Positions 3,848-28,293 of a stretch of DNA of 64,000 nt are shown in pieces. The position numbers were made by a program, and so were the translations under genes. The stretch lies in sequence record KT321315.1; one strand, 5' to 3'. A model generated the notes under the pieces. That model was not told the DNA's origin and ran no database searches. It saw only the letters and a program-made list of their open reading frames with translations. The stretch comes from Enterobacter phage phiEap-3. The first letter of the stretch is position 1. Each line of letters begins with the position of its first letter.

Positions 3848-6064
3848 TTAGAGTTTGACTTCTTTTTCTTCCAGAACGATTGTGCAATCAAATTTCACAT
3901 CTTTCCAGAATTCCGCTGCAACGATATCTGTTGCGGTAACGCTTACGCTGGTTTCTTCGAAATCCAGATCCGCAAACCATGCGTGTCCGACTACAATACC
4001 GTACATTACACGACTCAGGCGATTATTAAGGGCGCGAACCTCTTTAATAGTTTCCTTTGTCTGCTTATCAAGATACTCGATCAGGTCATTCTTGTCAAGC
4101 GCTTCGATCTCTTTAGATACGGTATCGTAAGCCCACAGAATGATCAGGTCACCATTGTTGAGTTTCTTTTTACCTTCGGCGCGTTTTGCAACGGTAGCAG
4201 CAACAGCCGGAAGTGATGAAACGCCTTTGATCTTCACGTTCAGTTCTTTCGACATGTAAACATCAGTCGATTCTGTGCGCTCAACCTTCGGAGAGAAGCC
4301 GTAATCACGGATCCCTTGCTCAGACAACCATTCACCAGCCGCCTCGCCAAAACGCTGTTTAAGCCCTTCTGCGTTGCGTAAACCAATCGCGTTATCACGG
4401 AAGAACTTCATTACTTTCTGACGGCCTTTCAGGATTTCCAGACGGACGTTATCAGCAACAAATTCCTTACCAGAAATACCGCGAGTCATCGAACGGTTAA
4501 CCAGAGGCAGAGAGGTAAAGTCAACCAGTACGGACATACGGTCTTCACCAATTTTAGCCAGCGGTTTGATAGTCAGACCAGAAGCACGTAAGTTTTTCAG
4601 AGTCGGAATATCGGTTTCCAGCGGAAGTACCTTAACGTTCACGATACCATCTTTAACAATGGTAAAGTTACGCACTTGTTTGGTTTCTACTTTTTCCGGC
4701 AATCCAAACTCTTTTTGTTTGCTTTCCGGAATAGTTACGTAACCTTGCAGATCCGTATTGATGGAAATGTTCGGACGGGAACTGTTACCCACCAGGTGTT
4801 TCACTGCAACTTTCGTTGTGGTTTGGGTAAATTCCGGTTTCCATACTTCGTGCGCTACCAGTTGAGCCGCCAGTGCTTTTCGTTCTTCCGGAGTAGAAGC
4901 ATTTGCAATCTGTTCTGACAGTTTATCCAGTGTATCATCATCTTTCTGGACAGTCTGACGGCCTGTACGATTGTACGCCCAGTGTTCAGAAGACAGGTCG
5001 ATCACTGTGTCGGTTTCTGCCAGCAGTTCGAGAGCATCAACCAGAGTAAACGCGTTTTCATCAGGAACCATGTTGTAATCAACACCATCCATCAGACGTT
5101 TAGCCGGATCAACAACCGCTTCGGAGATCATATCTTTAGCGTTTGAATAATCCTGTTTGGTAAAGCAGTTATCGTATGCTTTAATCAGACGCACATCACC
5201 CAGCTTTTTCAGAACTTTCCATGCCAGATCTGGATTCATGGTATGAAGCGCATGATACAGAACCACATACAGAACCTGTTCACCTTCTGCTGTTGCCGGA
5301 TCGAAGCCGTCAACGTCATTGATCGCGTTTTCACCCAGCGCCCAAATGTTTTTGATATGTTCCGGAACCAGAACAACACCATTTGCAGCATTCAGGACGT
5401 ACACACGGCCTTCATCCAGGTAGATCGCATGGGTTGCATCGCCAACTTTGACTTCAACACGTGCTGAGGTTTGCGCGGTAATGATTTCATCAAATGCAGG
5501 TACATACGCATCAAACCCTTCAACGAATTTGTGTAATGCGTTGGTTGCTTCCGCCATTTTTTCCAGCAGAGGACGGTTTACATAATAACCATATTCCAGG
5601 AAAGCAATGTTGTTAAACGTCAACGGCAGAGTAGAACACGCTTTCAGGATATCATCAGTACGCCAGCAGTTATCATAACCATCAGTCAGGAAGATCAGAC
5701 TGTTCAGATTGCCATTATCCGCTTGCAGATCGGTAGCGACTTCAACCGCCAGTTGCAGAGGTTCAACGAAGCCAGTACATCCGGTCGGACGCAGATAACG
5801 ATCGATAGCATCATTGATTTTGCTCAGGTCGGATACAGAGCTAACCTTTTCGCCCACGAATACAGAACCGAACTGACCACGGCTGGAGAAATACAGAATA
5901 GATACGGTATCATCCTGTTTAACCAGCGTTGCCAGGTTGTTTTTCAGGTGCTGACGAATGCGCGGGAGTTCGTTATACATCGATCCGGATACGTCACAAA
6001 CAAAAACGTGGTTAGTCGGGGTTGGTTTGGCTACGGCGTTTTTGAATTCAATGTTAGTGATCAT
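3848..6064 (-). CDS. von Willebrand factor A (VWA) domain protein, 738 aa
   Basis: N-terminal MIDAS motif (VFVCDVSGSM ... T ... FLTDGYDN), typical of a vWA fold. The C-terminal ~550 aa has no motif I recognise. Confidence 0.75.
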   Translation of the reverse strand: MITNIEFKNAVAKPTPTNHVFVCDVSGSMYNELPRIRQHLKNNLATLVKQDDTVSILYFSSRGQFGSVFVGEKVSSVSDLSKINDAIDRYLRPTGCTGFVEPLQLAVEVATDLQADNGNLNSLIFLTDGYDNCWRTDDILKACSTLPLTFNNIAFLEYGYYVNRPLLEKMAEATNALHKFVEGFDAYVPAFDEIITAQTSARVEVKVGDATHAIYLDEGRVYVLNAANGVVLVPEHIKNIWALGENAINDVDGFDPATAEGEQVLYVVLYHALHTMNPDLAWKVLKKLGDVRLIKAYDNCFTKQDYSNAKDMISEAVVDPAKRLMDGVDYNMVPDENAFTLVDALELLAETDTVIDLSSEHWAYNRTGRQTVQKDDDTLDKLSEQIANASTPEERKALAAQLVAHEVWKPEFTQTTTKVAVKHLVGNSSRPNISINTDLQGYVTIPESKQKEFGLPEKVETKQVRNFTIVKDGIVNVKVLPLETDIPTLKNLRASGLTIKPLAKIGEDRMSVLVDFTSLPLVNRSMTRGISGKEFVADNVRLEILKGRQKVMKFFRDNAIGLRNAEGLKQRFGEAAGEWLSEQGIRDYGFSPKVERTESTDVYMSKELNVKIKGVSSLPAVAATVAKRAEGKKKLNNGDLIILWAYDTVSKEIEALDKNDLIEYLDKQTKETIKEVRALNNRLSRVMYGIVVGHAWFADLDFEETSVSVTATDIVAAEFWKDVKFDCTIVLEEKEVKL

Positions 6065-7146: not shown

Positions 7147-7382
7147 GATTTTCCCTTTGTTTCTGATTTCAGGACGATATTGCTGTAAGGATCTTTTGCT
7201 ACCAGTTCCCACAGATCGCCGGGATGTTCCCCGCTACGATATACGGATGAACGAACGATTTCGTTAAACTTGCTTAGGGCTTCGTCGATATCGTCATACC
7301 CACGTTTGAGGGGCTTACGATTGTGACGAATGAAAAACATTTCTTTGGTTTTCTCCCAACGTTCAGCATTTTTAACCTTCAT
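7143..7382 (-). CDS. hypothetical protein (79 aa)
   Basis: ORF, translationally coupled. Confidence 0.4.
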   Translation of the reverse strand: MKVKNAERWEKTKEMFFIRHNRKPLKRGYDDIDEALSKFNEIVRSSVYRSGEHPGDLWELVAKDPYSNIVLKSETKGKS

Positions 7383-7656
7383 CTTTCACTTCCTTCATGT
7401 TTTTCATAACTTCTTCAAAAGTTACGGGAATTTCGTTGTACTGTTGAGATTCATCATCCCATACATCGCGATGCCCGAATGTTGAACTTTTTGCAATGAG
7501 TTTTTCATTTTCCCATACATCAATAGTAACATGATCACCAAGATAAGGGAAATTAGGAACTTTATTCAGCGCATCAACGCAGTTTTGCAATGATTCAGAA
7601 ACATGGGCAATTTCAGTGAATTCATAATCAGCACTATAAGAAGCTACGTAAATCAT
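7372..7656 (-). CDS. hypothetical protein (about 94 aa)
   Basis: ORF. The track start at 7662 is a GTG; an ATG at 7656 is more likely. Confidence 0.4.
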   Translation of the reverse strand: MIYVASYSADYEFTEIAHVSESLQNCVDALNKVPNFPYLGDHVTIDVWENEKLIAKSSTFGHRDVWDDESQQYNEIPVTFEEVMKNMKEVKDEG

Positions 7657-7823
7657 CACCACCCCCTAACGATGCTAACCAGCAGTAAACCCAGGATCCA
7701 GAACACAGCAACCGCACAAATACGGGCCATTACTACATTTCCGCGACTAGTCCACTCCGCACTAAGAAACAAGAGGACAAACGTTAACGCGTATAAAACC
7801 ATTTCAATAACTTCGGTAATCAT
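7656..7823 (-). CDS. small hydrophobic membrane protein (55 aa, two predicted TM helices)
   Basis: Not in the ORF track (under 60 aa). The hand translation, MITEVIEMVLYALTFVLLFLSAEW...FWILGLLLVSIVRGW, follows a terminator and an RBS (gaggtttatATG). Confidence 0.3.
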   Translation of the reverse strand: MITEVIEMVLYALTFVLLFLSAEWTSRGNVVMARICAVAVFWILGLLLVSIVRGW

Positions 7824-7838
7824 ATAAACCTCACGAAA

Positions 7839-7860
7839 AAGCCCCTTTCGGGGCTTGATT
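7839..7860 (-). terminator. rho-independent terminator (agcccctttcggggct + T-run on the minus strand)
   Basis: GC hairpin immediately after the stop of 7863..8141, followed by TTTTT on the minus strand. Confidence 0.6.
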
Positions 7861-7862
7861 AA

Positions 7863-8141
7863 TCAATGTCCGAACACACCACGAATAGACTCTGCGAATG
7901 CATACAGTTCAGGATTTTTAGCTTTCACTGTTTCGATTTGCTCCAGAATGTAATCTGGTTTGTATTTCGCACCGAACCAGCAGTAAGAGAAAGAGCGATC
8001 CCACATGAACACGTTATAGTATTCACCGTTGCGAACTTCAACCATCACATAACCAGGATTAGAACCCAGCGGATAATCTTTCAGAAGATTGAATTTCGCG
8101 CCAGCACCAGTACATCCGTTAAACAGGTCATTAAAAGTCAT
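7863..8141 (-). CDS. hypothetical protein (92 aa)
   Basis: ORF with a leader resembling the conserved cgaaacgaaac leader motif. Confidence 0.45.
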   Translation of the reverse strand: MTFNDLFNGCTGAGAKFNLLKDYPLGSNPGYVMVEVRNGEYYNVFMWDRSFSYCWFGAKYKPDYILEQIETVKAKNPELYAFAESIRGVFGH

Positions 8142-8199
8142 GGTATGTTCCTTTTGTCAGTTTCGTTTCAACAAGGTCACTATACTATTCTTCTTTAGC

Positions 8200-9111
8200 C
8201 TATGCAAGCGCTTTTTTGATTTGTTTTGCAATTGCTTCGATCACCGGAACAGATACAGAGTTACCCGCTTGTTTGTACGCCTGTGTTTTGCTCTTATGCA
8301 TCTTGAATGAATCCGGAAATCCTTGCAACCGGAAACACTCGCGAGGTGATAACATTCGAGGGTTCTTACCTTCCTGCAATACCAGACATTGAACACCATC
8401 CTTATAGTATTGGGCTGTTATCGTCCCAGTACACACAGAATCAACTGTAACGGCCTGATAGCCAAACCCCTTACCGTTTGCCTTGTTTCGTTCTTTACGC
8501 TCTCTAAAGCCCTTCCAGGCACGATCTGATATGGTGTATTGATCATTATCCGGTTCGAGAATGTCGCCTACCCTTGTTGGGGTACGTGGAGGAATAGGAA
8601 AACTAAAGAACACCGGATCGCGAAAGCAGACAATAAACACACGCTCTCTTCGTTGAGGCAATCCAAAATCTTTTGTATTCATTACCTGATAATGGATATC
8701 GTATCCTTCGTCCTGTAACAGCCTGTAGATGGTTTTAAACGTGTTTCCCTTGTCATGAGTTAATAGCTGGGGAACATTCTCAAAGAACAGCACAGAGGGC
8801 TTTTTAGCCCGTATAATGCGGAGTATTTCAAAGATGATAGTACCGCGAGGATCTAACATGCCCTGTTTTAACCCTGCTTTACTAAACGCCTGACAAGGAA
8901 ACCCCGCCAACAGGATATCGTGATCAGGCACATCGTTTTCATCAATGGCGAATATATCACCCTGAATATTTTCATCGCCCCAGTTATCAGCATATGTTTG
9001 TTGTGCATGTTTATCGATTTCAGACGTTAAAAGGCATTCGACCCCGCCGAATGCCTTATCGAAACCGAGCCTCACGCCACCAACACCAGCGCAAAGGTCA
9101 ATTATTTTCAT
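8200..9111 (-). CDS. DNA (cytosine-5)-methyltransferase
   Basis: Canonical m5C MTase motifs: motif I DLCAGVGG, motif IV GFPCQAFS (catalytic PC), motif VI ENVPQLL, motif VIII QRRERVF, and a C-terminal GNSVSVPV. Confidence 0.9.
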   Translation of the reverse strand: MKIIDLCAGVGGVRLGFDKAFGGVECLLTSEIDKHAQQTYADNWGDENIQGDIFAIDENDVPDHDILLAGFPCQAFSKAGLKQGMLDPRGTIIFEILRIIRAKKPSVLFFENVPQLLTHDKGNTFKTIYRLLQDEGYDIHYQVMNTKDFGLPQRRERVFIVCFRDPVFFSFPIPPRTPTRVGDILEPDNDQYTISDRAWKGFRERKERNKANGKGFGYQAVTVDSVCTGTITAQYYKDGVQCLVLQEGKNPRMLSPRECFRLQGFPDSFKMHKSKTQAYKQAGNSVSVPVIEAIAKQIKKALA

Positions 9112-9377
9112 ACGTCGAAATCAACCTCATCGATTTTGTATGATTCTTCGCCAATATCAGCCCATAGCTGAATATTCACGCTTTTTGCATCACGATAAAG
9201 AGATTGACCGCAAAGCCCACCTGTATAACAAGTTTCTGTAATCTCGTTAACTTCCAGGCGGAGGCTATCGCGCATAATTTTAACAACAGCCTGTTCCAGT
9301 GTAACCGCGTCTGGGTTTTTGGTATCACCCAATACTACATCTTTAACGTTCAAAATAACATCACTCATTATCGCCAC
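9108..9377 (-). CDS. hypothetical protein (89 aa), coupled to the MTase
   Basis: ORF overlapping the MTase start (ATGA). Confidence 0.45.
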   Translation of the reverse strand: MAIMSDVILNVKDVVLGDTKNPDAVTLEQAVVKIMRDSLRLEVNEITETCYTGGLCGQSLYRDAKSVNIQLWADIGEESYKIDEVDFDV

Positions 9378-9613
9378 TCCGTTTCAATTCCGTGTTTGTA
9401 TGCGTCAACGCCCAGAGGGGTGATCACTAAACACATATCAGTATTTTTCGTTGGTGAACTAAACGCCATTGATGCGTAACCTTTTTGAATCAGGGAATCA
9501 CGCCCTGATTTACTGGGAACATCGTTGAAATCTAAATCCAACATTTTTGACGAGTATCCGTAAAGTTTACACAAAACATCAATCTCAGCGCCGGATAATT
9601 TCGGATATGTCAT
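9368..9613 (-). CDS. hypothetical protein (81 aa)
   Basis: ORF overlapping both neighbours. Confidence 0.45.
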   Translation of the reverse strand: MTYPKLSGAEIDVLCKLYGYSSKMLDLDFNDVPSKSGRDSLIQKGYASMAFSSPTKNTDMCLVITPLGVDAYKHGIETEWR

Positions 9614-10617
9614 TTGTAATACCTCACAACATGTTCAGAATACACACGTTCAATGAAATCATTCCAGAAATCGCGATCAACTTCTTTCGGATAACCAGAT
9701 ACAGCCGCCAGCTTTTCAACTTCACACATCGTTGATTCTAGCGCCTCTTGTACGGTTGCGAAAGGAACACCGCCAGCTTTAACCATTTTCAAAAATGCGC
9801 TGTCCGGAAGAGGATACACAATATCACCTTCTTTGAAAATCTGGATCAATTGCATACCACCGCGCAAAGCATGAGAAAGAGCTTTCCAGTCGATCCCGTT
9901 GTTGGCTTCTGCTTGCCGTGCGCGTTCCCCGTATTCATCCCAGAGTTTATACACGGATTTCTTCATTTCCGCTACGGTGATCGTAGACTGGAATTTACGC
10001 CCCAGAACTTCATAAAATTCCTGACAACCTGATTTCATTGTTTTGTCTGTAACGAATCGACAAAACTCGTTGGTCGGGAATCGGTTAGAAATCTCACCAA
10101 CTTTGATGCGCTTGCCGTAGTTAGATTCATCCACGTTACCCAGCAATGATGTACCATACCAGCAATCAGGAATCGTCTGTAACACATCGACAACTTCACG
10201 CAGTGCAGCCAGGCGAGAGCCTTTAACGCCATACTTCGCCGCTTGCTTACGAACATAACCAAACAGGCCAGTGAGTTCCGTAGTGTAGAAGCGTGAACGG
10301 TTAGCGCGGAGATATTGCCAGATATCAGAGTTAGCGATCAGTTTGCTATCATCTGCATGAAGCATATCAATCGCCACGGTGTCACCATCACATGCGAGGC
10401 TGATAAACTTTTGCAGACTGTAAATCTGACGATCTACGTCATTAACACCGTTCTTTGAGTTTTTATCGCCAGTTGATGTATCAATAGACTTCTTCGCAGT
10501 GCCTAACAGGATTTCGCGAGGATGAGGGAGATAGATCCCTTTGTAGTCTTTATCGCTTGTTGGTGTTTCCAGTCCGTACAGGTGAGAACCGAATACGGTT
10601 TCCATAATCATTTTCAT
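9610..10617 (-). CDS. predicted nucleotidyltransferase (Pol-beta superfamily; resembles the RlaP/PF10127-type NTase)
   Basis: N-terminal GSHLYGLETPTSDKDYKGIY fits the NTase-fold G[SG]x9-13 Dx[DE] motif, as in the PF10127 family. 335 aa. Confidence 0.55.
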   Translation of the reverse strand: MKMIMETVFGSHLYGLETPTSDKDYKGIYLPHPREILLGTAKKSIDTSTGDKNSKNGVNDVDRQIYSLQKFISLACDGDTVAIDMLHADDSKLIANSDIWQYLRANRSRFYTTELTGLFGYVRKQAAKYGVKGSRLAALREVVDVLQTIPDCWYGTSLLGNVDESNYGKRIKVGEISNRFPTNEFCRFVTDKTMKSGCQEFYEVLGRKFQSTITVAEMKKSVYKLWDEYGERARQAEANNGIDWKALSHALRGGMQLIQIFKEGDIVYPLPDSAFLKMVKAGGVPFATVQEALESTMCEVEKLAAVSGYPKEVDRDFWNDFIERVYSEHVVRYYK

Positions 10618-10994
10618 CAGAATTCAACCTTTAATGTTTTTGCGATCCCGCGCAATTCAGCGGTAGTAATATCCGGAATGTTTGTTCCGTAGCTATTCCC
10701 AAATACTTTTTTAATCTTATCACACAAATCGCGGCGATACACCATTTCTTTGTATTCTTCTTCGCTACGATACAGTTGATAACCCATCCACCCCTCAGCC
10801 CATCCGGAATTGCGCTTGATTTTAATATTAGTACAACAATCAGACCCATCTTCCGGTCGGAAAGATGCATACAGGTACTGACGCGCAACTTTTTGTACGT
10901 AAAGGGTTTTGGGGTTGCGATTTTGTCGCTGGTCACTACGGATCCCAGCATCATACAACGTATCACCAACTTTCACATCACTTAAATCAATCAT
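10617..10994 (-). CDS. hypothetical protein (125 aa), first gene of the NTase-MTase operon
   Basis: ORF; its stop overlaps the NTase start. Confidence 0.45.
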   Translation of the reverse strand: MIDLSDVKVGDTLYDAGIRSDQRQNRNPKTLYVQKVARQYLYASFRPEDGSDCCTNIKIKRNSGWAEGWMGYQLYRSEEEYKEMVYRRDLCDKIKKVFGNSYGTNIPDITTAELRGIAKTLKVEF

Positions 10995-11218
10995 TTACGT
11001 CTCCAGCAATTAGTTTTTTCACAGTAATGAACGGGAACAGGCACACCCAACGTTTCTTTACTGCTTCTGTTGTATGTTATCACAACGAATCGGTTTTCGC
11101 CACCCCTAACACACTCCAGATCCAAAATCTCGCGGGTTCCCTTCGTGTTAATGTCTGCAACATAATATTCTTCGTTGTTGACAATCACTATATCCGACAT
11201 GATCAAGCGAGGTTTCAT
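10991..11218 (-). CDS. hypothetical protein (75 aa)
   Basis: ORF, ATGA-coupled. Confidence 0.4.
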   Translation of the reverse strand: MKPRLIMSDIVIVNNEEYYVADINTKGTREILDLECVRGGENRFVVITYNRSSKETLGVPVPVHYCEKTNCWRRK

Positions 11219-11826
11219 GCAGCGTACACCTCTGATTCATCGATCCATTCCAGATCCTGATTGAGTGATTCAATCAGCTTTTTATCGCGTCTGGAAATAA
11301 CAACGGTAGAACCTTTTTCTGCCTTCACGATGATATCACCAGAAGAGGTGATGTATTCAACCACATAATCACGGCGAGGGCTTCCGAGTCTATCACCAAC
11401 TTTAACAGCACGTCTAACCGATTCATGAGATTTTTCGGTGAACACTAATTCATCACCTACGTGGGTAACAATACCATCAACAGCAGAACGAGAATTAACA
11501 TAAATTTTGCTAATCTCCGCCATGAAAACACTATCTCTCAGATATCGAGCAGCCACTTTATCTAAACACTGAGAAGATACTTTATCTCCGCCAGGATATA
11601 CTGAGATAATCATTACATGACCCTGAACACGGGCGGTTCCTACTTTATGCAGAATGTAAACCATTGAACCATCAGAATCTTTAGATACAAGGATCACGCT
11701 GAAAGATTCTTTGTGTTGCTTCTGAGTTTCTCCACAGGTAAAACTCACGTCCAGAAAATCACCAACTTTAACAGCACGGGGTTTTGCTACTTGTTCACGA
11801 GCACTAATAACAGGGATCATAATCAT
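11215..11826 (-). CDS. hypothetical protein (203 aa)
   Basis: ORF. Confidence 0.45.
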   Translation of the reverse strand: MIMIPVISAREQVAKPRAVKVGDFLDVSFTCGETQKQHKESFSVILVSKDSDGSMVYILHKVGTARVQGHVMIISVYPGGDKVSSQCLDKVAARYLRDSVFMAEISKIYVNSRSAVDGIVTHVGDELVFTEKSHESVRRAVKVGDRLGSPRRDYVVEYITSSGDIIVKAEKGSTVVISRRDKKLIESLNQDLEWIDESEVYAA

Positions 11827-12092
11827 TTCCTCACAGTTTCAAATTCTTCATCAGATTTCCAATACACGTTAAAATTACGACAATCATGTTCGGCTGTCAA
11901 CGTATATTTTTCATTTGTTTTCTCATCGGTGATAACCATAGTTTCATTATCGATTGAGTTAACACCATAAACGAAAACATTCTCACCGCGTTTGTTTAAA
12001 AACGCATCACCCTTTTCAATCAACTGCCAACAGGCAACAGGCAACCCACCTGGACAAATCGGACGGGTAACAAGACAATAGGGATGTTTCAT
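11823..12092 (-). CDS. hypothetical Cys-containing protein (about 90 aa from MKHPYCLV)
   Basis: The track start (12122) reads into a PeSL hairpin. The internal ATG at 12092 sits after the conserved leader. Confidence 0.4.
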   Translation of the reverse strand: MKHPYCLVTRPICPGGLPVACWQLIEKGDAFLNKRGENVFVYGVNSIDNETMVITDEKTNEKYTLTAEHDCRNFNVYWKSDEEFETVRK

Positions 12093-12160
12093 AATAAGCC
12101 TCTTTTGTTTCTGTAGGCCCAATATAGCAAAAGCCCCTGACCTAAGTCAAGGGCTTTGTT
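12093..12160 (-). repeat. PeSL-like cassette (hairpin aagcccctgacctaagtcaagggctt + TGCTATATTGG + leader)
   Basis: Same hairpin family and extended -10 as at 2165..2240. Confidence 0.6.
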
Positions 12161-13231
12161 TTAAATTCCGGTAAATGCTACGATGATTTGATAATGATCA
12201 TCGAAGAATAGATCCCGCATCGCGATCACTTCGTGCATCGGTAGCCAGAACGCGTCTGCTGCATCATCAGAGCCGCCCATAATACGAGGCAATGAACCAT
12301 CGTTATTAGGTTCGAGCTTGATATATTGTGCTACAGTCGGTTTTGAGAAGTACACCGAACGTTTCGGATGATCGAACAGCATCGAATTACGGATAGAACC
12401 ACGAATAACCTTTTCTGGTACTTTAATTCGTACTTCTTCCAGCAATTCACGGATCGCACAATCAAGGAACGTTTCGTTACCGTTTTTGTGTCCACCAGGA
12501 AGCGCTAACGCATCTTTACCAGGCGCAAACTTACGACGGATTACTAACACGTGGTTATTACATACGACCACTGAGTCAGCCGTGCAACAGTTCAGAGAAT
12601 CCGGATACGGATATTTTTTGAACTTGTCAATCTCTCGTTGCCAGTGTGCATCTTCATGGGACAAACGCTGGAATTCTTTTGTTTGTGTCCATTCATCGAT
12701 AAAGGAAACCGTAGTGCTAGGCGCATATTTTAACAAATCTTCGTCCCAGCCTTCATGGTGTTCCCAGATAATTTTGCGTAAATTGGTCGAGGACAGATCC
12801 TGATCTCCAACCTTCACAGGTTCAACCGGAATATGATTCCATCCGAATGCTTTAAGCCAGTAAGAATCTTTGTCTTTTTCGTATCCGACGATCGCAATTC
12901 GATCATTTCGAGTTTCATCGATTGCCATACGAACGCGGGATTTCCATTTTTCCTCGTTATAGAGGTAATCTGGAATGTGCGCGAATTTGATTCTGGCTGC
13001 ATCTTCAACATCAAGTTTGCAGATAGACCAGCGAGTGATCATTGCTTGACGCTGTTTAGCGGTCAATGGGTTTAATGTGTTCGGATATGCATAAGCAGAA
13101 CCGATCAGAATGTAAACCGTATTAGCAACAGCAAGGGCTTCCCTTACCATTTTCTCATGACCATAGTGAAAAGGTTGAAAACGTCCAATTACTACAGCTT
13201 TATCATATTTGTGTTTCATAACGTGCTCCAC
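12161..13231 (-). CDS. bifunctional NMN adenylyltransferase / Nudix hydrolase (NadM-Nudix, NatV-like)
   Basis: N-terminus VVIGRFQPFHYGH (the HxGH NMNAT motif of NadM/NadR type). C-terminal Nudix box GGHKNGNETFLDCAIRELLEEV. Confidence 0.8.
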   Translation of the reverse strand: MEHVMKHKYDKAVVIGRFQPFHYGHEKMVREALAVANTVYILIGSAYAYPNTLNPLTAKQRQAMITRWSICKLDVEDAARIKFAHIPDYLYNEEKWKSRVRMAIDETRNDRIAIVGYEKDKDSYWLKAFGWNHIPVEPVKVGDQDLSSTNLRKIIWEHHEGWDEDLLKYAPSTTVSFIDEWTQTKEFQRLSHEDAHWQREIDKFKKYPYPDSLNCCTADSVVVCNNHVLVIRRKFAPGKDALALPGGHKNGNETFLDCAIRELLEEVRIKVPEKVIRGSIRNSMLFDHPKRSVYFSKPTVAQYIKLEPNNDGSLPRIMGGSDDAADAFWLPMHEVIAMRDLFFDDHYQIIVAFTGI

Positions 13232-13357
13232 GTTTAAAGGTTAATCATAAAACAGACGCAATTATCAACACACCAAACAATCCACCAATGAAACCAAAGA
13301 ATAGTGAAATGAGTATAGTCAGTACGATCTGTTTTATGTTCATTATAGTATTCTCGT

Positions 13358-13383
13358 TTTAGATGTCAAGCCCCCAAAGAGGG
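13358..13383 (-). terminator. GC hairpin (agccccc-aaag-agggggct) after the SPFH gene
   Basis: Hairpin adjacent to the stop at 13396. The T-run on the transcribed strand is weak. Confidence 0.35.
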
Positions 13384-13395
13384 GGCTTTAAAACA

Positions 13396-14322
13396 TTATT
13401 TACGAGAATCGAAAATCACTTTACCAGCATAATCCGAACCCATTACAGTTTGAGGTACGCCACCTTTATAGCGGGTAGAGTAGTTCATCTGTACATCCAG
13501 TTCTTTCCAGCGGATCATTTCCGGCGTAATGGTGCGTTGCAGGGCGGCGTTGGCTTCTGCTTCTTTCTTCGCTGCATACAGACGGGCATCAGCATCACGT
13601 TCGTTAGCGATTGCAGCGTTTTCACGCGCCTGACGATCGGCTTCCGCTTGTTTTACTGCTTGTAGTGAAGTTTGTTCTACTTTTTGCAGTTCAGCTTTAG
13701 CAGCGTTAACCTGTTCTTCGCGGATCTTCGTGTTAGTTACCTGTTCCATGATAACTTCCGGCAGGGTGATATCCTGCAAGAATACCTGTTTCACAGTGTA
13801 ACCGTAAGGCCGCGCATAATCTTCTACTTCCTGCTGAATCGCAATTTGCAGTTGGTTTTGGATCTTCGCATCAAACAGGTCTTGCGCTTTCGGTACGGAT
13901 TTACCAAATTCGCGAACAGTGGAAAGCAGTTTTTCAGTTACATACTTATCCAGTGCCTGATCCTGATTACCCGCGTTGATACGGTTGATCGGTGCTTTGC
14001 TACCGTCGAATTGCAGCATTACGGTCATATCCACAGTGGATTTAAATTTATCCTGGGACGGAACCTGTAATTTGTCGAACTTCATCGCGATGTCTTTGGT
14101 GCTGAACGTATCAAACGTTGCCAGCGGGTTTACAATGTGGAAACCGGGTAGTACGGGTTTCGGTGATACTTTACCCATGAAGGTTTCAGTTTTAACCGTA
14201 CCGTCTTGCACAATGGTATACATGTTAGGCACTAACCACAGTGCTGCAACTACGCCCAGAGCGATCAGAGAGGTTTTCTTCGGGTTGTTCACGATAGTGT
14301 TTAAGTTCATCATAATTTCCAT
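13396..14322 (-). CDS. SPFH / band-7 (prohibitin/HflC-like) membrane-anchored protein
   Basis: N-terminal TM segment (SLIALGVVAALWLV). SPFH-like core. Long Ala/Glu/Gln/Lys-rich coiled coil (AKAELQKVEQTSLQAVKQAEADRQARENAAIANERDADARLYAAKKEAEANAA). Confidence 0.75.
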   Translation of the reverse strand: MEIMMNLNTIVNNPKKTSLIALGVVAALWLVPNMYTIVQDGTVKTETFMGKVSPKPVLPGFHIVNPLATFDTFSTKDIAMKFDKLQVPSQDKFKSTVDMTVMLQFDGSKAPINRINAGNQDQALDKYVTEKLLSTVREFGKSVPKAQDLFDAKIQNQLQIAIQQEVEDYARPYGYTVKQVFLQDITLPEVIMEQVTNTKIREEQVNAAKAELQKVEQTSLQAVKQAEADRQARENAAIANERDADARLYAAKKEAEANAALQRTITPEMIRWKELDVQMNYSTRYKGGVPQTVMGSDYAGKVIFDSRK

Positions 14323-14382
14323 AAGTTGTTGTTCAATTCGATAGTTATTCTATCATCACATTTCACGCTGTCAAACTATTTT

Positions 14383-14805
14383 TTAAGAAAGTTTTGTCAG
14401 CTTGTAGATTGTTTGATAGCACAAGCCCTTAATCTCGTCCAGGATGTTCTTCAAAGAACTATCTACTGATTCGTAGATCTCGTTTGCTTCGTTGGCTATT
14501 TTACGGAGATACGCTACCGTGTCAAGCATATTTTCGGTTTTTAGCACAGGTTTGTATCTTCCCGTGATTCCTATGTGGATTTCGGTGAATTTATCAACCA
14601 AATCCTGCATATCTTCGTAAAAACCCTCATATGCTTTATGTTGTGAGTAGGAACCTGTTGCAAAATGTGCGCTATGCATATACGTAACGGACATAAGGCA
14701 CATGCCAATAAAGGCATCTATCTTGCTTGAGTTCTCAGATTCTGTAATTTGTTTAAATGATTGCATGATGATCCCTTTATGAACGATGGATACTTGCAAA
14801 CTCAT
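14383..14805 (-). CDS. hypothetical protein (rI.-1 position). Weak ferritin/Dps-like four-helix pattern, not asserted.
   Basis: ORF. The likely true start is internal (MQSFKQ). Confidence 0.35.
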   Translation of the reverse strand: MSLQVSIVHKGIIMQSFKQITESENSSKIDAFIGMCLMSVTYMHSAHFATGSYSQHKAYEGFYEDMQDLVDKFTEIHIGITGRYKPVLKTENMLDTVAYLRKIANEANEIYESVDSSLKNILDEIKGLCYQTIYKLTKLS

Positions 14806-15058
14806 ACGCGACCCTAATTCCTAGCTTTGCGCATTCGGATTCAGATCGGCATTGTTTTTGGTGCCATTTTCGTTCCATGTAGTTGTAGAATAGTTCGCTT
14901 GTATTTACGCTGGGAGGGATCGTTGTGATGTATACTTGAAGGGCCGCATTAATATAATCGTCAAATTCTTTCTGAACCGGACGGTCGGCGGCGTGTGTTG
15001 TGGGTGTCATCATCAACAATCCGAACAGCACAGCCATTGATATGCGTTTAATGTTCAT
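14777..15058 (-). CDS. rI: lysis inhibition regulator RI (antiholin), secreted
   Basis: Signal-anchor N-terminus. The C-terminus SELFYNYMERKWHQKQCRSESECAKLGIRVAYEFASI aligns with T4 RI (SEQFYSFMRTTYKNDPCSSDFECIERGAEMAQSYARI). Lies downstream of tk, as in T4. Confidence 0.7.
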   Translation of the reverse strand: MNIKRISMAVLFGLLMMTPTTHAADRPVQKEFDDYINAALQVYITTIPPSVNTSELFYNYMERKWHQKQCRSESECAKLGIRVAYEFASIHRS

Positions 15059-15059
15059 A

Positions 15060-15146
15060 ACAATTACTCTTTTACTCATAGACCCACTATAGGTCTACTC
15101 CTGTATATATTTATAGCAAAAACGAGGCCGAAGCCTCGTTATAATA
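15060..15146 (-). promoter_or_regulatory. terminator hairpin (aacgaggccgaagcctcgtt) followed by TGCTATAAATAT (extended -10 sigma70 and T4-late-type TATAAATA) upstream of rI
   Basis: On the minus strand: hairpin, then tttttGCTATAAATAtatac, then a second small hairpin (tagacctatagtgggtcta), then the rI ATG. Confidence 0.5.
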
Positions 15147-15164
15147 TTTTTGCTGTAAAGTCAA

Positions 15165-15557
15165 TCAAGTAATGTCATACCAACACAAACTTCTTTCGAA
15201 AGCGCGTATTTTGTTCACGTTTTCTACGTTTTCATCCCAACCGATCACGCCAGCTTTCATACGTTTCAGTTCCTGACGTAAACGGGTACGTACTTTTGAA
15301 TCAATTTTCTTTACTGCAATAGAAAGCATTGCATTCAGATCGCCATGAGCTTTGTTACCGTCGCGACACAGATTATTATCAAATCGAATATATGCACATC
15401 CTGATTTGTGTTTCCAGTTGGTTGAGTACCAACGCAACCCATCCGGATCAATACCATGTTGAGCATAATAACGAGAATACTCTTTTACTTCTTCGATCTT
15501 TTCGTTAGATGAACGGTCACGAAGAGGGTTGTATTTCTTACGGTAAGTGCGACTCAT
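15165..15557 (-). CDS. hypothetical basic protein (130 aa)
   Basis: ORF downstream of tk. Confidence 0.45.
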   Translation of the reverse strand: MSRTYRKKYNPLRDRSSNEKIEEVKEYSRYYAQHGIDPDGLRWYSTNWKHKSGCAYIRFDNNLCRDGNKAHGDLNAMLSIAVKKIDSKVRTRLRQELKRMKAGVIGWDENVENVNKIRAFERSLCWYDIT

Positions 15558-15573
15558 AATGATCTCCTTTTGT

Positions 15574-16182
15574 TTATGCTTCCACTGTATCAGGGTTGTT
15601 CTTTAGTTGCAAGTAATGTTTTCGACAAAGTGAAACATATTTGTCTTCGGCCCCGATCTCAATCTGGTCGCCATTAGCAACAAATTTGCCATTTGCATCA
15701 ATACGGGCTACGGTAGTTGCTTTCTTTCCACAATGACAAACCCCCCGCAACTCCCTGATCTCATCAGCAAGCGCCAGCAACATATAAGAACCTTCAAACA
15801 AGTTCAACTGAAAATCGGTTCTTAGTCCATATGTCATTACGGGTATATCTAATTCGTCAACAACCCGACACAGATCCATGACATTTTTCCTGGAAAGGAA
15901 TTGCGCTTCATCCACAAACACGCAAGAAACCAGTTTCTCGCTATCACCGTAAAAATGATTGTTGTGAACATCATAATACAAGTCCATATCAGGCGTGATC
16001 ATGGTGCATGTTGCTTCCAACCCAATACGCGAAGAGATACTCTGTTTACCTTCTCGCGTATCAATTGCTGGTTTGTACATCAGGATCCGCATACCGCGTT
16101 CCTGGTAGTTGTATGCATCAGTGAGTAAACGAGCACTCTTGCCAGCATTCATTGATGCATAATGAAAATATAGTTTAGCCAT
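15574..16182 (-). CDS. tk: thymidine kinase
   Basis: P-loop NAGKS, followed by the TK family core and a C-terminal Zn-ribbon (CHCGKKATTVARID...C). 202 aa. Confidence 0.9.
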   Translation of the reverse strand: MAKLYFHYASMNAGKSARLLTDAYNYQERGMRILMYKPAIDTREGKQSISSRIGLEATCTMITPDMDLYYDVHNNHFYGDSEKLVSCVFVDEAQFLSRKNVMDLCRVVDELDIPVMTYGLRTDFQLNLFEGSYMLLALADEIRELRGVCHCGKKATTVARIDANGKFVANGDQIEIGAEDKYVSLCRKHYLQLKNNPDTVEA

Positions 16183-16372
16183 TTATCCTCTCAACAAAAT
16201 CTGGGGTATTTTGGAATTTCCCTTCCCCTTCATGGTTTTTGCATGTTTTATTTGAACAGTAGATCCACCAATCCCACTCATCATAAGGGGGTTTGGTAAT
16301 GTTCATTACACAAATTAAAGGGAAATGACAATCCCGACAGCGAACATTTTCTATAATGTTTGCGTTAGCCAT
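16175..16372 (-). CDS. small Cys-rich (zinc-ribbon-like) protein
   Basis: CRDCHFP...CSNKTCKNH. The track start at 16417 overlaps the upstream ORF; an internal Met is likely. Confidence 0.3.
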   Translation of the reverse strand: MANANIIENVRCRDCHFPLICVMNITKPPYDEWDWWIYCSNKTCKNHEGEGKFQNTPDFVERING

Positions 16373-16652
16373 GCGTATAACCGCCCATTTCGTTATCTTG
16401 TGCTTGATGAATATCAAGATACCACATATTGATTTTGCTTTTCAGTTCGTCCATTTCTTTATCAAGCCCACTGTCAACAAGACAGAGAATGTCAACCACC
16501 GTTTTACGCTGGGTGATGTTGATTTTGTTCGCTTTCATCGCTTGCGCCAATGCATTGCAGGTTTTAACCAGTGCGGCGCGTTGTCCTTTGATTACGGCGA
16601 TCCGTTTGTTCGCTTTCTTGATCGCCCGACCTGCTTTGATAGGATCCATCAT
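16365..16652 (-). CDS. hypothetical basic protein (95 aa)
   Basis: ORF. Confidence 0.4.
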   Translation of the reverse strand: MMDPIKAGRAIKKANKRIAVIKGQRAALVKTCNALAQAMKANKINITQRKTVVDILCLVDSGLDKEMDELKSKINMWYLDIHQAQDNEMGGYTHG

Positions 16653-16654
16653 GA

Positions 16655-17128
16655 TTAATTCGCCTTACGAGGATCGAAATGAACGACAATGATCGGGTAA
16701 TCACCAGTCACCTCATTAATAATGCGCTTAATGAGTTCCCAGTCGCCCCCAGCAAGGCCAGCACCGATTAAAGGTGTGATGATAGGCTTTCCAGTTTTAA
16801 CGGCGTCAGCAAGCCCTACAGCCTGTTTAAACGCATTACCTATTGCATCATAATCGACACGCGGCCCAGGTGTCCAGAAATCATATTGAGTGTATGCATT
16901 GAAAACAATGTTGCCTTTTTCGCCAATGTAAACAGAACAAGTTCCGAGCTTATCACGGGAACCTTTTAACGTATTGGCATCAACTTGAAATGCACCAGGA
17001 ATACGATCGCGGATTTCGCGAGCAATACCAGCGCCCATATTGCAATAGCAGTTGCATCCGTGGATCAAATGGCCTTCACCATTCAGATACATATTGACAG
17101 CATTACCTTTCACTTCTTTAATGATCAT
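16655..17128 (-). CDS. macro domain (ADP-ribose binding/processing) protein
   Basis: GCNCYCNMGAGIAREI and LIGAGLAGGDWE match the macro-domain Asn-rich and Gly-rich loops. About 157 aa from MIIKEVKG. Confidence 0.65.
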   Translation of the reverse strand: MIIKEVKGNAVNMYLNGEGHLIHGCNCYCNMGAGIAREIRDRIPGAFQVDANTLKGSRDKLGTCSVYIGEKGNIVFNAYTQYDFWTPGPRVDYDAIGNAFKQAVGLADAVKTGKPIITPLIGAGLAGGDWELIKRIINEVTGDYPIIVVHFDPRKAN

Positions 17129-17425
17129 TTTTATTTTTCCGATATAGTAGGGCCACAACAAGGCCCATCAAAATCACAAGGATCCACAATACAGTGAATT
17201 GAACCCCTACGCTCATTTTCTCGCTTTCCGTTCGCGGCGGCGGTCTTCTTGATGACACATATACATTACACCAGTAAAGACCACAAGGCCAATAACAAAC
17301 CCGATGAAATTACACATAGTCATCATCCCCGCAATAATAACAAGGCCCAGTGCTCTCATGCTTACCAGCATTGTACGCCAAGAACACCACAACCGCCGCC
17401 ATAATAATAAAAATCCAGATAGCCA

Positions 17426-17749
17426 TTAGTAAAGCCCTATGCCAGCATTAAATTCGTCAACCAAATAAGTACGGAACTTTTCGCACCGTTCCTTATTTGG
17501 CGCTTGTTTGCATAGATTCATCATTGGTTCAGACTGCAAAAACTCTTTTTGTTTCAGCAACTTACCGCGTTTATACAGGTGAGCATTTTCCTCTCCCCAC
17601 ATATAAGCAACATCTAACTGTTCTGCGATCACTTGCTTACATACTGCGACATCTTTAATATCACGATTGTTGCATAACTCATCCAGGCGAGCATCACCCG
17701 CGTGAGCAAATCCAGCAACCAGAGTTAAAAGCAGTGCTAACTTTTTCAT
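17426..17749 (-). CDS. secreted hypothetical protein (signal peptide MKKLALLLTLVAGFAHA)
   Basis: Signal peptide with an AHA cleavage site. 107 aa. Confidence 0.5.
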   Translation of the reverse strand: MKKLALLLTLVAGFAHAGDARLDELCNNRDIKDVAVCKQVIAEQLDVAYMWGEENAHLYKRGKLLKQKEFLQSEPMMNLCKQAPNKERCEKFRTYLVDEFNAGIGLY

Positions 17750-17758
17750 GATGATTCC

Positions 17759-18349
17759 TTATTCATCCTCTTCGATAGGGGTATAATAATGCGCATTGCA
17801 GATATACGCAAGAACTTTTTTCAGAGACATATCCGAGAATGTCGGATCCTGATTTCGTCTCATCCCACTACCAGTTTCAACAGCCCAACGTTTGTTAGCT
17901 GGATTGTATGTCAGCCAGTAACAATCCCATTCAGACAGAGTATGTTCGAACAGATCGAAACGCTTACGCCCATTTGCTTGCGGCCTAACAAAAGGTTCAA
18001 CCATTTCTAAAGCGGTTAAAACTCGATTAAGGTTTGAACCGTCTTCATCCATCGCGATCCGCAAACAGTACTGGTTAATGTCCGGATCCATACCATCGAT
18101 ACCCAGGCCGATAGATTCGAAAAATTGTGTCGCCGCGTGATAAGACACACTAGAAGAACGATATTCCAACATCACGGGGATCTTTTCCCCATCCTTGACG
18201 TTGTTAATGATATCCTGATCGATAAGTTCAATCAGGTCTCTTTTATCCTTGATCAAGGTAGAAATTTCTTCTTGCAGAGGGGCTATCTGTGCATGAAGTT
18301 CTTTGATCCGTTGATCAATTACGGTTACTTCGAAAGCTAAATTTCTCAT
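17759..18349 (-). CDS. hypothetical protein (about 196 aa)
   Basis: ORF. Confidence 0.45.
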   Translation of the reverse strand: MRNLAFEVTVIDQRIKELHAQIAPLQEEISTLIKDKRDLIELIDQDIINNVKDGEKIPVMLEYRSSSVSYHAATQFFESIGLGIDGMDPDINQYCLRIAMDEDGSNLNRVLTALEMVEPFVRPQANGRKRFDLFEHTLSEWDCYWLTYNPANKRWAVETGSGMRRNQDPTFSDMSLKKVLAYICNAHYYTPIEEDE

Positions 18350-18492
18350 TGTACCCATTCCCCGTTTTTGTCAATGTACATGATCCAATCAGCAACCGCC
18401 CAATGGGAAGTATTGCCTTTCGGAGTCGCTACGATGTAGGAACCAGCTTTAAACAGTACGCGTTTAGTTTCGTTCAGGATCAGGTCGCTCAT
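18346..18492 (-). CDS. small hypothetical protein (48 aa, MSDLILNETKRVLFKAGSYIVATPKGNTSHWAVADWIMYIDKNGEWVQ)
   Basis: Not in the ORF track. Follows a PeSL cassette with an RBS (gagagga). TGA/ATG overlap with the next gene. Confidence 0.3.
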   Translation of the reverse strand: MSDLILNETKRVLFKAGSYIVATPKGNTSHWAVADWIMYIDKNGEWVQ

Positions 18493-18560
18493 AATGTATT
18501 CCTCTCAATTAGATGCATCTATAATAAAAAAGCCCCAGACCGAAGTCAAGGGCTTTTTGT
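18493..18560 (-). repeat. PeSL-like cassette (hairpin aagccccagaccgaagtcaagggctt + T-run + TTATTATAG + leader)
   Basis: Same hairpin family as at 2208 and 12130. Confidence 0.55.
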
Positions 18561-27470: not shown

Positions 27471-27534
27471 TTTTTATCCCCGTTTCGTTTCGGTATGGGT
27501 GTAAGATAACATCATCCTACACCCAGCGCAAGAG

Positions 27535-27705
27535 TTATTTGTACTCCATGAAGAATTTTATTGCTTCTTCTGGCGTCATACCGTCAGAGAAAAATCCAAA
27601 GAAAGTACAGTGATGGTCGTTGTATGAAATATTCAAAGGAGATAGTAAACTTCGAACATGTTCAGCCCACAAACGATATTTTTTGCTGAATGGTTGATCT
27701 CTCAT
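27535..27705 (-). CDS. small protein (56 aa), SDG[MC]TPE[ED]A family paralog
   Basis: Hand-translated. Shares FFSDGMTPEEAIKFF with LYSDGCTPEDAVCEY of the adjacent ORF 27702..27899. Confidence 0.3.
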   Translation of the reverse strand: MRDQPFSKKYRLWAEHVRSLLSPLNISYNDHHCTFFGFFSDGMTPEEAIKFFMEYK

Positions 27706-27899
27706 TCTTCGTCCCCTTGTGCGTAATATTCACATACTGCATCTTCTGGGGTGCAACCGTCCGAGTAAAGAGCATACATCAGATCTTCGTCATAATCAGA
27801 AGAACCCAGCATATGTTGAACAGAACGTTTCCATTTATTGTAATCTTTTTCGCCCTGGGTTTCGCTGTTTTCTGATTTAAGCATTTCGTACATGTTCAT
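27702..27899 (-). CDS. small acidic protein (65 aa), SDG[MC]TPE[ED]A family
   Basis: ORF; paralog of the previous. Confidence 0.4.
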   Translation of the reverse strand: MNMYEMLKSENSETQGEKDYNKWKRSVQHMLGSSDYDEDLMYALYSDGCTPEDAVCEYYAQGDEE

Positions 27900-28041
27900 A
27901 GGAATCTCCCGTAGTCGGTTGCTGCATCTTCCGGATCCGCATCCAGTTCGTACAGTTCGCGAGCTAGTGCGCTGGGTTTAATATCGCGCCCTAAGTGGGC
28001 GCTAACATTACGTAGCCATTTCATATAGGGTTCGAATTTGT

Positions 28042-28293
28042 TCATTTTATACGTACCGCGTTAAAAGCCTGGTTCCGGAGATCATACGCTTTTTCAAGCT
28101 GTTCTGTAGTGAACAGAGAACTATCCGAGTTTACCGTGAAACTGCAAATGGTTTTGTTGTCGGCGTTGACTTCTTCAACAACGATATCATAACCCCAAAT
28201 ACCACTTAGTTCACATTTCACGTTACGGTACTTGATATAAACCGCAACAACATCTTCTTTTTTGTAGTTACGGCTTTTGTATAAAATTTCCAT
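28042..28293 (-). CDS. hypothetical protein (83 aa)
   Basis: ORF preceded by the catcgaaacgaagcagag leader. Confidence 0.4.
   Translation of the reverse strand: MEILYKSRNYKKEDVVAVYIKYRNVKCELSGIWGYDIVVEEVNADNKTICSFTVNSDSSLFTTEQLEKAYDLRNQAFNAVRIK

Follow-up and report, generated by a model that had tools for sequence, protein, structure and literature searches.

An orphan C5-cytosine DNA methyltransferase and an NrdC.11-type nucleotidyltransferase as probably unrelated neighbours in a likely nine-ORF polycistron of Enterobacter phage phiEap-3

Five minus-strand open reading frames (ORFs) were investigated in a 64,000-nucleotide (nt) stretch of the genome of Enterobacter phage phiEap-3 (KT321315.1), called the window below. 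Two of them encode enzymes, a C5-cytosine DNA methyltransferase (MTase) and a nucleotidyltransferase (NTase), and three encode small proteins named by their length in amino acids (aa), o125, o81 and o89 (the last likely 86 aa); the upstream ORFs o203 and o75 were named in the same way. With a probability of about three in four, we regard these genes as part of an ordinary early polycistron of nine ORFs in a cytosine-DNA Slopekvirus, in which the orphan MTase and the NTase, an ortholog of T4 NrdC.11, are functionally unrelated neighbours. All five ORFs called by an earlier note on this DNA, which had described them as a translationally coupled operon, were present, and their junctions were overlaps of 1 nt (TGATG, TAATG) or 4 nt (ATGA).

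The window belongs to the genus Slopekvirus, within the Straboviridae (T4-like phages), and the backbone order tk, rI, nrdC.11 is common to this phage and T4. Over about 3.3 kb around the five genes, the sequence matched Klebsiella phage RCIP0002 (OR532796.1) at 100% identity, and more than 100 further Slopekvirus genomes, among them KP15, KP27, Matisse, Miro and PMBT1, matched it at 98%; 172 related phage records were available for the five-gene region. Along the window, identity to RCIP0002 was mosaic, with 99.5% over 7378-18504, 96.7-99% in most other blocks and 91.8% at 27521-28293, and the unaligned stretches between blocks point to small indels or replaced genes. Whole-genome gene content and site counts were taken from RCIP0002 (174 kb) and published relatives. 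Since RCIP0002 is a different isolate, 92-100% identical to the window, whole-genome statements below refer to RCIP0002 and the relatives.

Comparison with RB43, Miller, IME-CF2, JC221 and Phynn showed that the set does not hold together in these phages. A block of about 15 genes, from a NadR/Nudix gene to a 171-aa ORF, was syntenic between Slopekvirus and Pseudotevenvirus; as this block is conserved as a whole, conservation does not single out five genes. In the T4 and Karamvirus regions examined, the NTase was the only one of the five genes in common, and no relative of the MTase was found there. The o89 homolog and the MTase are separated by a gene on the opposite strand in Miller, RB43 and IME-CF2; the annotation of Miller also places terminators between the two and gives the MTase its own ribosome-binding site (RBS). 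RB43 and JC221 carry the MTase and o89 and have no o81. In JC221 an unrelated 132-aa ORF takes the place of o81, and there is no overlap between the MTase and the gene upstream of it. What remains in Pantoea phage Phynn is o203, o75, o125 and the NTase (74% identity); o81, o89 and this MTase family are absent. These breaks divide the genes into at least two units, o203-o75-o125-NTase and the MTase possibly with o89. The ORF o81 is freely replaceable, dispensable and restricted to the clade.

The gene intervening in Miller, RB43 and IME-CF2 encodes 233 aa with an Sf6-type tail-needle-knob domain (PF16532, 8.9e-35). It looks like a moron insertion, and a podovirus-type tail-tip domain is odd in the early region of a myovirus.

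The NTase is, on sequence grounds, a full-length ortholog of T4 NrdC.11 and an RlaP-family nucleotidyltransferase of the Pol-beta type. A tblastn search of T4 proteins against the whole RCIP0002 genome gave 50% identity with NrdC.11, colinear over residues 1-335, and no counterpart of the T4 nrdC.1-.10 and mobD.1-.5 proteins. PF10127 was matched at 3.1e-12 (47.2 bits, gathering cutoff 23) by residues 3-131 on profile positions 20-141 of 249, and T4 NrdC.11 gave the same result. The motif GSHLYG...SDKDYKGIY, on which the earlier note had based its RlaP-like assignment, was present in the 335-aa translation, and that assignment stands. The Pol-beta signature residues (G10-S11, D22-K-D24 and D84) were invariant in six orthologs including that of T4, and long C-terminal stretches were invariant between the NTase and T4 NrdC.11. 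A translated search found the gene at full length in 1,613 of 50,697 phage records, including T4, T2, RB32, JS98 and RB68 and phages of Aeromonas, Acinetobacter, Vibrio and Sinorhizobium; about 1,440 of these records lie outside the clade with this MTase. Unlike in T4, where mobD and mobD.1 precede nrdC.11, a ProQ-C-like gene precedes the NTase in the clade of the window.

Where phage records give the homologs a gene name, it is nrdC.11. The product is mislabelled "thioredoxin" in many of them (UFV01, IME-CF2, PMBT1, phT4A), KLB10 labels it "nrdC-mobD intergenic region", and "hypothetical protein" also occurs. In vB_KleM_kp20 the product labels appear shifted, the NrdC.11 ortholog being called "DNA polymerase".

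Two Pseudomonas RlaP enzymes were found to add one or two nucleoside monophosphates to the 3'-OH of RNA, with damaged RNA preferred and DNA no substrate, and T4 NrdC.11 was placed within the RlaP family (PMC12776372, December 2025 preprint). An earlier comparative study predicted a role in RNA repair in phages (PMC7824862), and T4 mutants without nrdC.11-mobD.3 are viable (PMC9825161). RCIP0002 encodes RNA ligase 1 (Rnl1), RNA ligase 2 (Rnl2) and PseT elsewhere in its genome. Given the activity of the family on RNA and these repair genes, the NTase is, by analogy, most likely an RNA 3'-end repair enzyme rather than a DNA modifier. A PDB sequence search with the NTase gave nothing usable (best E 0.23), PfRlaP being either not in the set or too distant.

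The MTase matched PF00145 over the complete profile (positions 1-324 of 324; 1.6e-95, 320.7 bits, cutoff 22) and TIGR00675 (1.6e-97, 327.1 bits, cutoff 100.65). Its PADLOC matches were to generic MTase models only (type II MTase, 1.7e-114). The motifs DLCAGVGG, GFPCQ (with Cys73), ENV, QRRER, PRMLSPRE and GNSV were all present in the 303-aa protein, which bears out the motif-complete C5-cytosine methyltransferase read earlier from the sequence. Across seven homologs of 53-84% identity, these motifs were invariant save for one residue near ENV and the S of GNSV, replaced by T in a single homolog. The gene was found in about 173 T4-like records at 77-100% identity, comprising Slopekvirus, Pseudotevenvirus (RB43 with 82% identity, RB16, Lw1, GAP161, Miller, CfP1 and others) and Yersinia phage JC221. 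Such retention, in essentially every member of two genera, indicates purifying selection.

Published relatives of this enzyme are ORF127c of RB43 (Nolan et al. 2006, PMC1524935) and the MTase of KP15 and KP27, which shows 99% similarity between the two phages and was called "Dcm methylase" (PMC3620542, PMC5219037). These are orthologs at the same position downstream of nrdC.11, and nothing material differs. The label "Dcm" is, however, probably wrong, as the sequence does not suggest a Dcm ortholog: against the E. coli Dcm model (NF007772/PRK10458) the MTase reached 195.4 bits, with a cutoff of 710, over positions 163-454 of 472, and it is without the N-terminal region of Dcm-type enzymes, which total about 470 aa. 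It groups instead with CCNGG-type enzymes. The next-best phage match, with 52% identity, was spyIM (M.SpyI) of Streptococcus phage phi1207.3. The nearest non-phage relatives were bacterial chromosomal genes of 58-60% identity (305-319 aa), one of them labelled nlaX by JGI, and the depositors of RB43 likened its MTase to M.NlaX and M.ScrFIA.

In Hafnia paralvei and Haemophilus influenzae biotype aegyptius, the MTase homologs lie directly downstream of a restriction endonuclease (REase) with a PF09019 (EcoRII-C) domain. The best solved relative of the Hafnia REase was R.Ecl18kI (5.7e-29), followed by EcoRII (8e-7) and PspGI (5e-5). R.Ecl18kI recognises CCNGG, and EcoRII and PspGI cut CCWGG. The target recognition domain (TRD) of the phage MTase (residues 164-249) could be aligned with a gap of at most one residue, showing 51-56% identity to the bacterial homologs and 45% to M.SpyI; GKGFGY, T-x-T-I-x-A-x-YYKDG and NPR were common to the MTase and the CCNGG-type group. 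M.SpyI, the subject of work by Euler et al. in 2007, reportedly generates C(m5C)NGG. It also blocks SmaI (PMC4260502). Given the TRD likeness and the Ecl18kI-like REase beside the homologs, the MTase probably methylates the inner C of CCNGG, at minimum that of CCWGG.

No endonuclease gene adjoining the phage MTase was found among the ORFs or with Pfam and PHROG profiles. Since the bacterial homologs have such a neighbour, the phage enzyme would be an orphan derivative, probably captured from a restriction-modification system of the SsoII/Ecl18kI/SpyI type. M.SpyI has 100 extra N-terminal residues, and M.SsoII also carries an N-terminal regulatory extension (about 70-100 aa); the phage MTase and the bacterial homologs of about 307 aa start at motif I. 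The phage enzyme thus differs from the M.SpyI/SsoII/Ecl18kI/NlaX/ScrFIA group, which it otherwise resembles in overall identity and alignable TRD, in being an orphan without the extension of about 100 aa and in having a target that is a predicted one. The closest solved structure was that of M.HhaI (GCGC), matched over the full length at E 3.6e-69, with the same fold and compact size (327 aa vs 303 aa) and a highly similar catalytic domain, but the TRD alignment with it needs several gaps. A GCGC (HhaI-like) specificity was rejected, as the M.HhaI TRD fits poorly and much closer relatives are of the CCNGG type; the GCGC count of RCIP0002 is unremarkable. No direct assay of the phage MTase was found in the searchable literature, and literature searches found no 5-methylcytosine (m5C) mapping or methylome data for Slopekvirus.

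In Phynn, a 226-aa "DNA methyltransferase" (9222-9902 of the stretch examined) occupies the MTase position downstream of nrdC.11. It had no Pfam match, but its FDGSG, PPC and ENP recall C5-MTase motifs I, IV and VI, and it could be a minimal cytosine methylase that has diverged far.

The genes of the T4 hydroxymethylcytosine (hmC) pathway, a check suggested in the earlier note, were absent from RCIP0002. By tblastn against the whole genome, T4 gp42 matched only td (thymidylate synthase; 23% identity, 7e-5), and neither alpha-gt nor beta-gt had a match. Of the two possibilities raised in that note, unmodified cytosine DNA protected by methylation is therefore the right one, and it had already been published for the same genus: KP15 and KP27 have Dam and Dcm-type genes and no hydroxymethylase or glucosyltransferase (PMC3620542, PMC5219037), and searches of them for TET/JBP, Mom, deazapurine and other modification systems found none (PMC5219037). 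Their virion DNA, with 276-279 EcoRII sites, was uncut by EcoRII, from which the authors inferred Dcm-type methylation (PMC3620542). RCIP0002 has a Dam homolog (55% identity) and a gp56-like protein (46% identity).

The gp56 dCTPase/dUTPase homolog lies outside the window, at 63974-64510 of RCIP0002, and aligned over 170 aa. Because a dCTPase would be counter-productive in a cytosine-DNA phage without dCMP hydroxymethylase, it is presumably a dUTPase.

Restriction-site usage in RCIP0002 was strongly skewed. Of the 64 six-base palindromes, 24 were absent, among them the sites of HindIII, NcoI, SphI, KpnI, PstI, SalI, XhoI, SacI and SacII, and GGWCC occurred twice against 68 expected. CCWGG (observed/expected ratio, O/E, 0.84), GATC (O/E 0.99) and GCGC (O/E 1.02) were not avoided. 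The tolerated GATC and CCWGG sites fit protection by Dam and m5C. Both this phage type and T4 evade cytosine-directed restriction, and both have gp56-like proteins; T4, however, replaces the base globally and adds glucose to hmC, whereas site-specific m5C after replication, N6-methyladenine (m6A) by Dam and massive site avoidance would act here. KP27 DNA also resists EcoRI, NsiI, SnaBI and DpnI, while that of KP15, 96% identical, is sensitive, and the authors proposed a homing-endonuclease hypothesis (PMC3620542, PMC5219037). As both phages carry the same Dcm and Dam genes (98-99% similarity), those genes cannot explain the resistance of KP27. The same holds for the five genes studied here, which both phages have.

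To speak of a "five-gene operon" is to cut arbitrarily into a longer, probably early polycistron. Co-transcription of the five genes is plausible, as the earlier note had proposed, but the limit it set was wrong: no promoter, terminator or coupling particular to the five was found, and eight genes in a row are spaced by no more than 2 nt, a run that extends upstream to the ORF at 11823-12092. Overlaps occur at 31 of the 76 same-strand junctions (41%) of the same minus-strand block, 26 of them of exactly 1 or 4 nt, and the block has other runs of four to six tight junctions. A hairpin and a promoter-like site on one side and an intrinsic terminator on the other bracket nine ORFs, so the likely transcript (12154 to 7836) carries all nine (Table 1). 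The promoter-like site agrees with the consensus at 10 of 12 positions plus the TG and overlaps the hairpin. The terminator was not listed by the pattern scanner, probably because its stem absorbs part of the T run. The depositors of KLB10 annotated terminators at places equivalent to both boundaries of the unit.

Table 1. Position and basis of the elements and ORFs of the nine-ORF unit, with the gene inserted in three relatives.
Feature	Position	Strand	Basis and remarks
Hairpin	12154-12129	-	GCCCTTGAC, TTAG loop, GTCAGGGGC, then TTTT; directly after NadR/Nudix gene; read from the sequence
Sigma-70-type promoter-like site	12150-12121	-	TTGACT 12150-12145, 18-nt spacer, TG-extended TATATT 12126-12121
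First ORF of the unit, 89 aa from annotated ATG	11823..12092	-	RBS AAGAGG 12099-12104
o203, 203 aa, phrog_7905	11215..11826	-	ATGA overlap with next gene
o75, 75 aa, phrog_7777	10991..11218	-	ATGA overlap at both ends
o125, 125 aa, ProQ C-terminal-like (PF24203)	10617..10994	-	Stop overlaps NTase start by 1 nt (TGATG)
NTase, 335 aa, T4 NrdC.11 ortholog, RlaP (PF10127)	9610..10617	-	Pfam, identity, catalytic residues
o81, 81 aa, predicted winged-helix fold	9368..9613	-	AlphaFold model and fold search
o89, likely 86 aa, acidic	9108..9368	-	ATG 9368; GTG 9377 a less likely alternative
MTase, 303 aa, orphan C5-cytosine DNA methyltransferase	8200..9111	-	PF00145, TIGR00675, motifs
92-aa ORF, phrog_7752, last gene before terminator	7863..8141	-	Own RBS; 58-nt gap after MTase
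Intrinsic terminator	7836..7856	-	AAGCCCC, GAAA loop, GGGGCTT, then TTT; directly after stop of 92-aa ORF
233-aa tail-needle-knob ORF of relatives	RB43 ORF128w 8940-9641; Miller 7812-8513; IME-CF2 7291-7992 (stretches examined)	opposite	PF16532

The first ORF of the unit had no Pfam match; its homologs showed 76-87% identity in GAP161, Miller, RB43 and IME-CF2 and 60% in JC221. Conservation of the following o203 was weak, its counterparts in Pseudotevenvirus and Phynn aligning only in part, at 27-34% identity, and o75 had homologs in Phynn, JC221, RB43 and others. The 92-aa ORF is conserved downstream of the MTase in GAP161 (100%), Miller, RB43 and JC221, and one extra ORF lies between the MTase and its homolog in GAP161, Miller and RB43. 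Upstream of the unit, at 12161-13231, is a gene for a bifunctional nicotinamide mononucleotide (NMN) adenylyltransferase/Nudix protein (NadR/NadM-like), a host-like NAD salvage function; it is common to RB43-type phages, and none was found in the T4 region examined. It is preceded by a perfect sigma-70 promoter on the minus strand (13342-13369; TTGACA, 16-nt spacer, TATAAT, 12/12).

Among the small proteins, o125 matched PF24203 at 1.2e-13 (52.1 bits, gathering cutoff 27) by residues 6-121 on profile positions 5-109 of 112. It was found in 161 phage records, all of this clade plus Phynn, and in Phynn it lies directly upstream of the NTase. Its ProQ-C-like domain, the 1-nt overlap with the NTase and the retention in Phynn, where this MTase family is absent, make a partnership plausible, and o125 may be an RNA-binding partner of the NTase. 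A PDB sequence search with o125 gave nothing usable (best E 0.6). JC221 has two tandem ProQ-C-like genes (4867-5217 and 5228-5614 of the stretch examined; 34% and 53% identity to o125) directly upstream of its NrdC.11 ortholog. A paralogy of o125, o203 and o75, considered for their common "VKVGD" motif, was unsupported (BLASTP E = 0.55 and 28).

No Pfam match was obtained for o81 and o89, whose PHROGs are of unannotated function only, and NCBIfam had no match for the four non-MTase proteins of the five-gene set. Among 5.8 billion, the o81 family counted 13 clusters and the o89 family 37. The alignment-based AlphaFold model of o81 (predicted local distance difference test score, pLDDT, 78.5; predicted template modelling score, pTM, 0.68) consisted of a helix, a short helix, a helix, a beta-hairpin and a helix. 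Its top PDB fold matches were almost all winged-helix proteins, mostly MarR (probability 0.9-1.0, template modelling score 0.59-0.72, root mean square deviation down to 2.0 Å); with E values of 0.01-0.2, none reaching 0.001, the assignment is fold-level evidence only. The 81-aa protein would be a winged-helix core without the MarR dimerisation helices. The ORF given as an 89-aa protein from 9377 in the earlier note is real, but its start is more likely the ATG at 9368, which is annotated in RCIP0002 (86 aa, 1-nt TAATG overlap) and agrees with phrog_7342, whose 86 positions align with residues 4-89. The o89 protein has an isoelectric point (pI) of 4.2, and its model (pLDDT 71) showed a disordered N-terminus, a single helix and a meander of three strands; the only fold matches in PDB and BFVD were the protein itself (phiEap-3) and viral proteins that are uncharacterised.

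Several points weigh against the reading favoured here. Enzymes whose TRDs are 45-56% identical mostly, though not invariably, have the same or a closely related specificity, and CCSGG, unlike CCWGG, is depleted in RCIP0002 (O/E 0.37, 45 sites left), which could mean that CCWGG alone is protected. The siphovirus KP36, without a C5-MTase, is equally EcoRII-resistant through host Dcm (PMC3620542); since host Dcm alone can confer this resistance, the published digests are no proof of an active phage MTase. As for the NTase, the two assayed RlaP enzymes are bacterial and both fall in cluster 1a of the sequence similarity network, while NrdC.11 falls in cluster 5 (PMC12776372). The NTase further differs from these Pseudomonas enzymes in having no adjoining RNA ligase gene (RtcB, Rnl) within the nine-ORF unit, and it matches only the N-terminal half of the PF10127 model. 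The MTase, o81, o89 and o125 occur in almost the same set of phages (161-173 records), so some co-function is possible, although the co-occurrence of the small proteins with the MTase is confounded by common descent in one clade. The promoter and the terminators were called by their likeness to a consensus, with promoter-like sites as numerous as expected from shuffling, and gene content was checked on RCIP0002, another isolate.

The contrast between tolerated CCWGG and depleted CCSGG in RCIP0002 would also be expected if the MTase were a functional equivalent of Dcm that methylates CCWGG only, the unprotected CCSGG sites having been removed by avoidance; the EcoRII resistance of KP15 and KP27 and the name "Dcm" given in earlier papers agree with this. 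We consider it possible but unlikely. The MTase falls far below the Dcm cutoff and is without the Dcm N-terminal region, its nearest relatives are M.SpyI and MTases accompanied by Ecl18kI-like REases, not those of EcoRII or PspGI types, and 45 CCSGG sites are left in a genome that has been reduced to two GGWCC sites and purged of 24 six-base palindromes altogether. Other causes of the CCSGG depletion are possible, namely BcnI/NciI-type enzymes or the liability of C(m5C)GGG to McrA-type enzymes. McrA prefers Y-m5C-G-R.

A role of o89 and/or o81 as accessory factors of the MTase appeared doubtful. With its predicted winged-helix fold, o81 could replace the autoregulatory helix-turn-helix N-terminus of SsoII/SpyI-type MTases, which the phage enzyme lacks (100 aa in M.SpyI), and o89, being acidic, could act as a DNA-mimic-like inhibitor of type IV restriction; the o89 stop overlaps the MTase start, both genes are kept in JC221 and RB43, and both are absent in Phynn. 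Yet the MTase occurs without o81 in RB43 and JC221, and o89 is separated from it by the opposite-strand gene in RB43, Miller and IME-CF2, with terminators annotated in Miller. The o89 model, of moderate pLDDT, had no fold match to known anti-restriction proteins, and within one clade joint inheritance may simply reflect common descent. A long shot is that o81 and o89 form an unrecognised accessory pair, one regulating the orphan CCNGG MTase and the other neutralising type IV restriction, with the CCSGG depletion as the scar of that conflict; more remote still is a variant in which they contribute to the broad restriction resistance of KP27.

That the MTase is an inactive or vestigial captured gene, with EcoRII resistance coming wholly from host Dcm, is very improbable: the full resistance of KP36 and the lack of a direct assay in the searchable literature would allow it, but every catalytic motif is preserved and does not vary among homologs of 53-84% identity, and the gene is kept under apparent purifying selection in about 173 records. 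Finally, the proposal that the five genes work together as a dedicated module for modifying DNA or nucleotides in several steps, or for anti-restriction, for example for nucleotidylation or derivatisation of m5C, to which their overlaps, co-orientation, near-equal distribution within the Slopekvirus/Pseudotevenvirus clade and the unexplained resistance of KP27 DNA had lent some appeal, is hardly credible, since the NTase is T4 NrdC.11 with most of its records outside the MTase clade, both tested RlaP enzymes are inactive on DNA (PMC12776372), the gene set splits in five phages, overlaps are the norm in the block, KP15 is sensitive with the same Dcm and Dam genes (PMC5219037), and neither PADLOC nor other modification families were matched by the NTase or the small ORFs.

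According to the favoured reading of a nine-ORF polycistron with unrelated enzymes, transcription would run early in infection from the promoter-like site to the terminator. The MTase, probably acquired from a restriction-modification system and since retained in the core gene set of Slopekvirus and Pseudotevenvirus, would be made early and use S-adenosylmethionine to methylate the inner C of CCNGG (at least CCWGG) on replicating phage DNA. Progeny DNA would then resist the CCNGG and CCWGG endonucleases common in Enterobacteriaceae (SsoII, Ecl18kI and EcoRII types), and most other restriction enzymes would be evaded through the purging of their sites. Separately, the NTase would extend damaged RNA 3' ends by one or two nucleotides, in concert with RNA ligases 1 and 2 and polynucleotide kinase, with o125 as its possible RNA-binding partner. 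The ORFs o81 and o89 appear to be accessory genes particular to the clade, and neither enzyme could be linked to them.

An m5C methylase in cytosine-DNA T4-like phages, the absence of an hmC pathway and EcoRII resistance were published between 2006 and 2016. The present analysis adds, incrementally, the boundaries of the nine-ORF unit, the NrdC.11/RlaP identity of the NTase, the probable SsoII/Ecl18kI/SpyI-type lineage of the so-called Dcm and the contrast between CCWGG and CCSGG. NrdC.11 merits annotation as an RlaP-type RNA 3'-end nucleotidyltransferase. An MTase of CCNGG lineage would predict which plasmid-borne restriction systems of Klebsiella, Enterobacter and Citrobacter are escaped by these phages, which are therapeutic candidates, and two methylases together with extreme site avoidance would explain their broad host range better than a hidden modification module.

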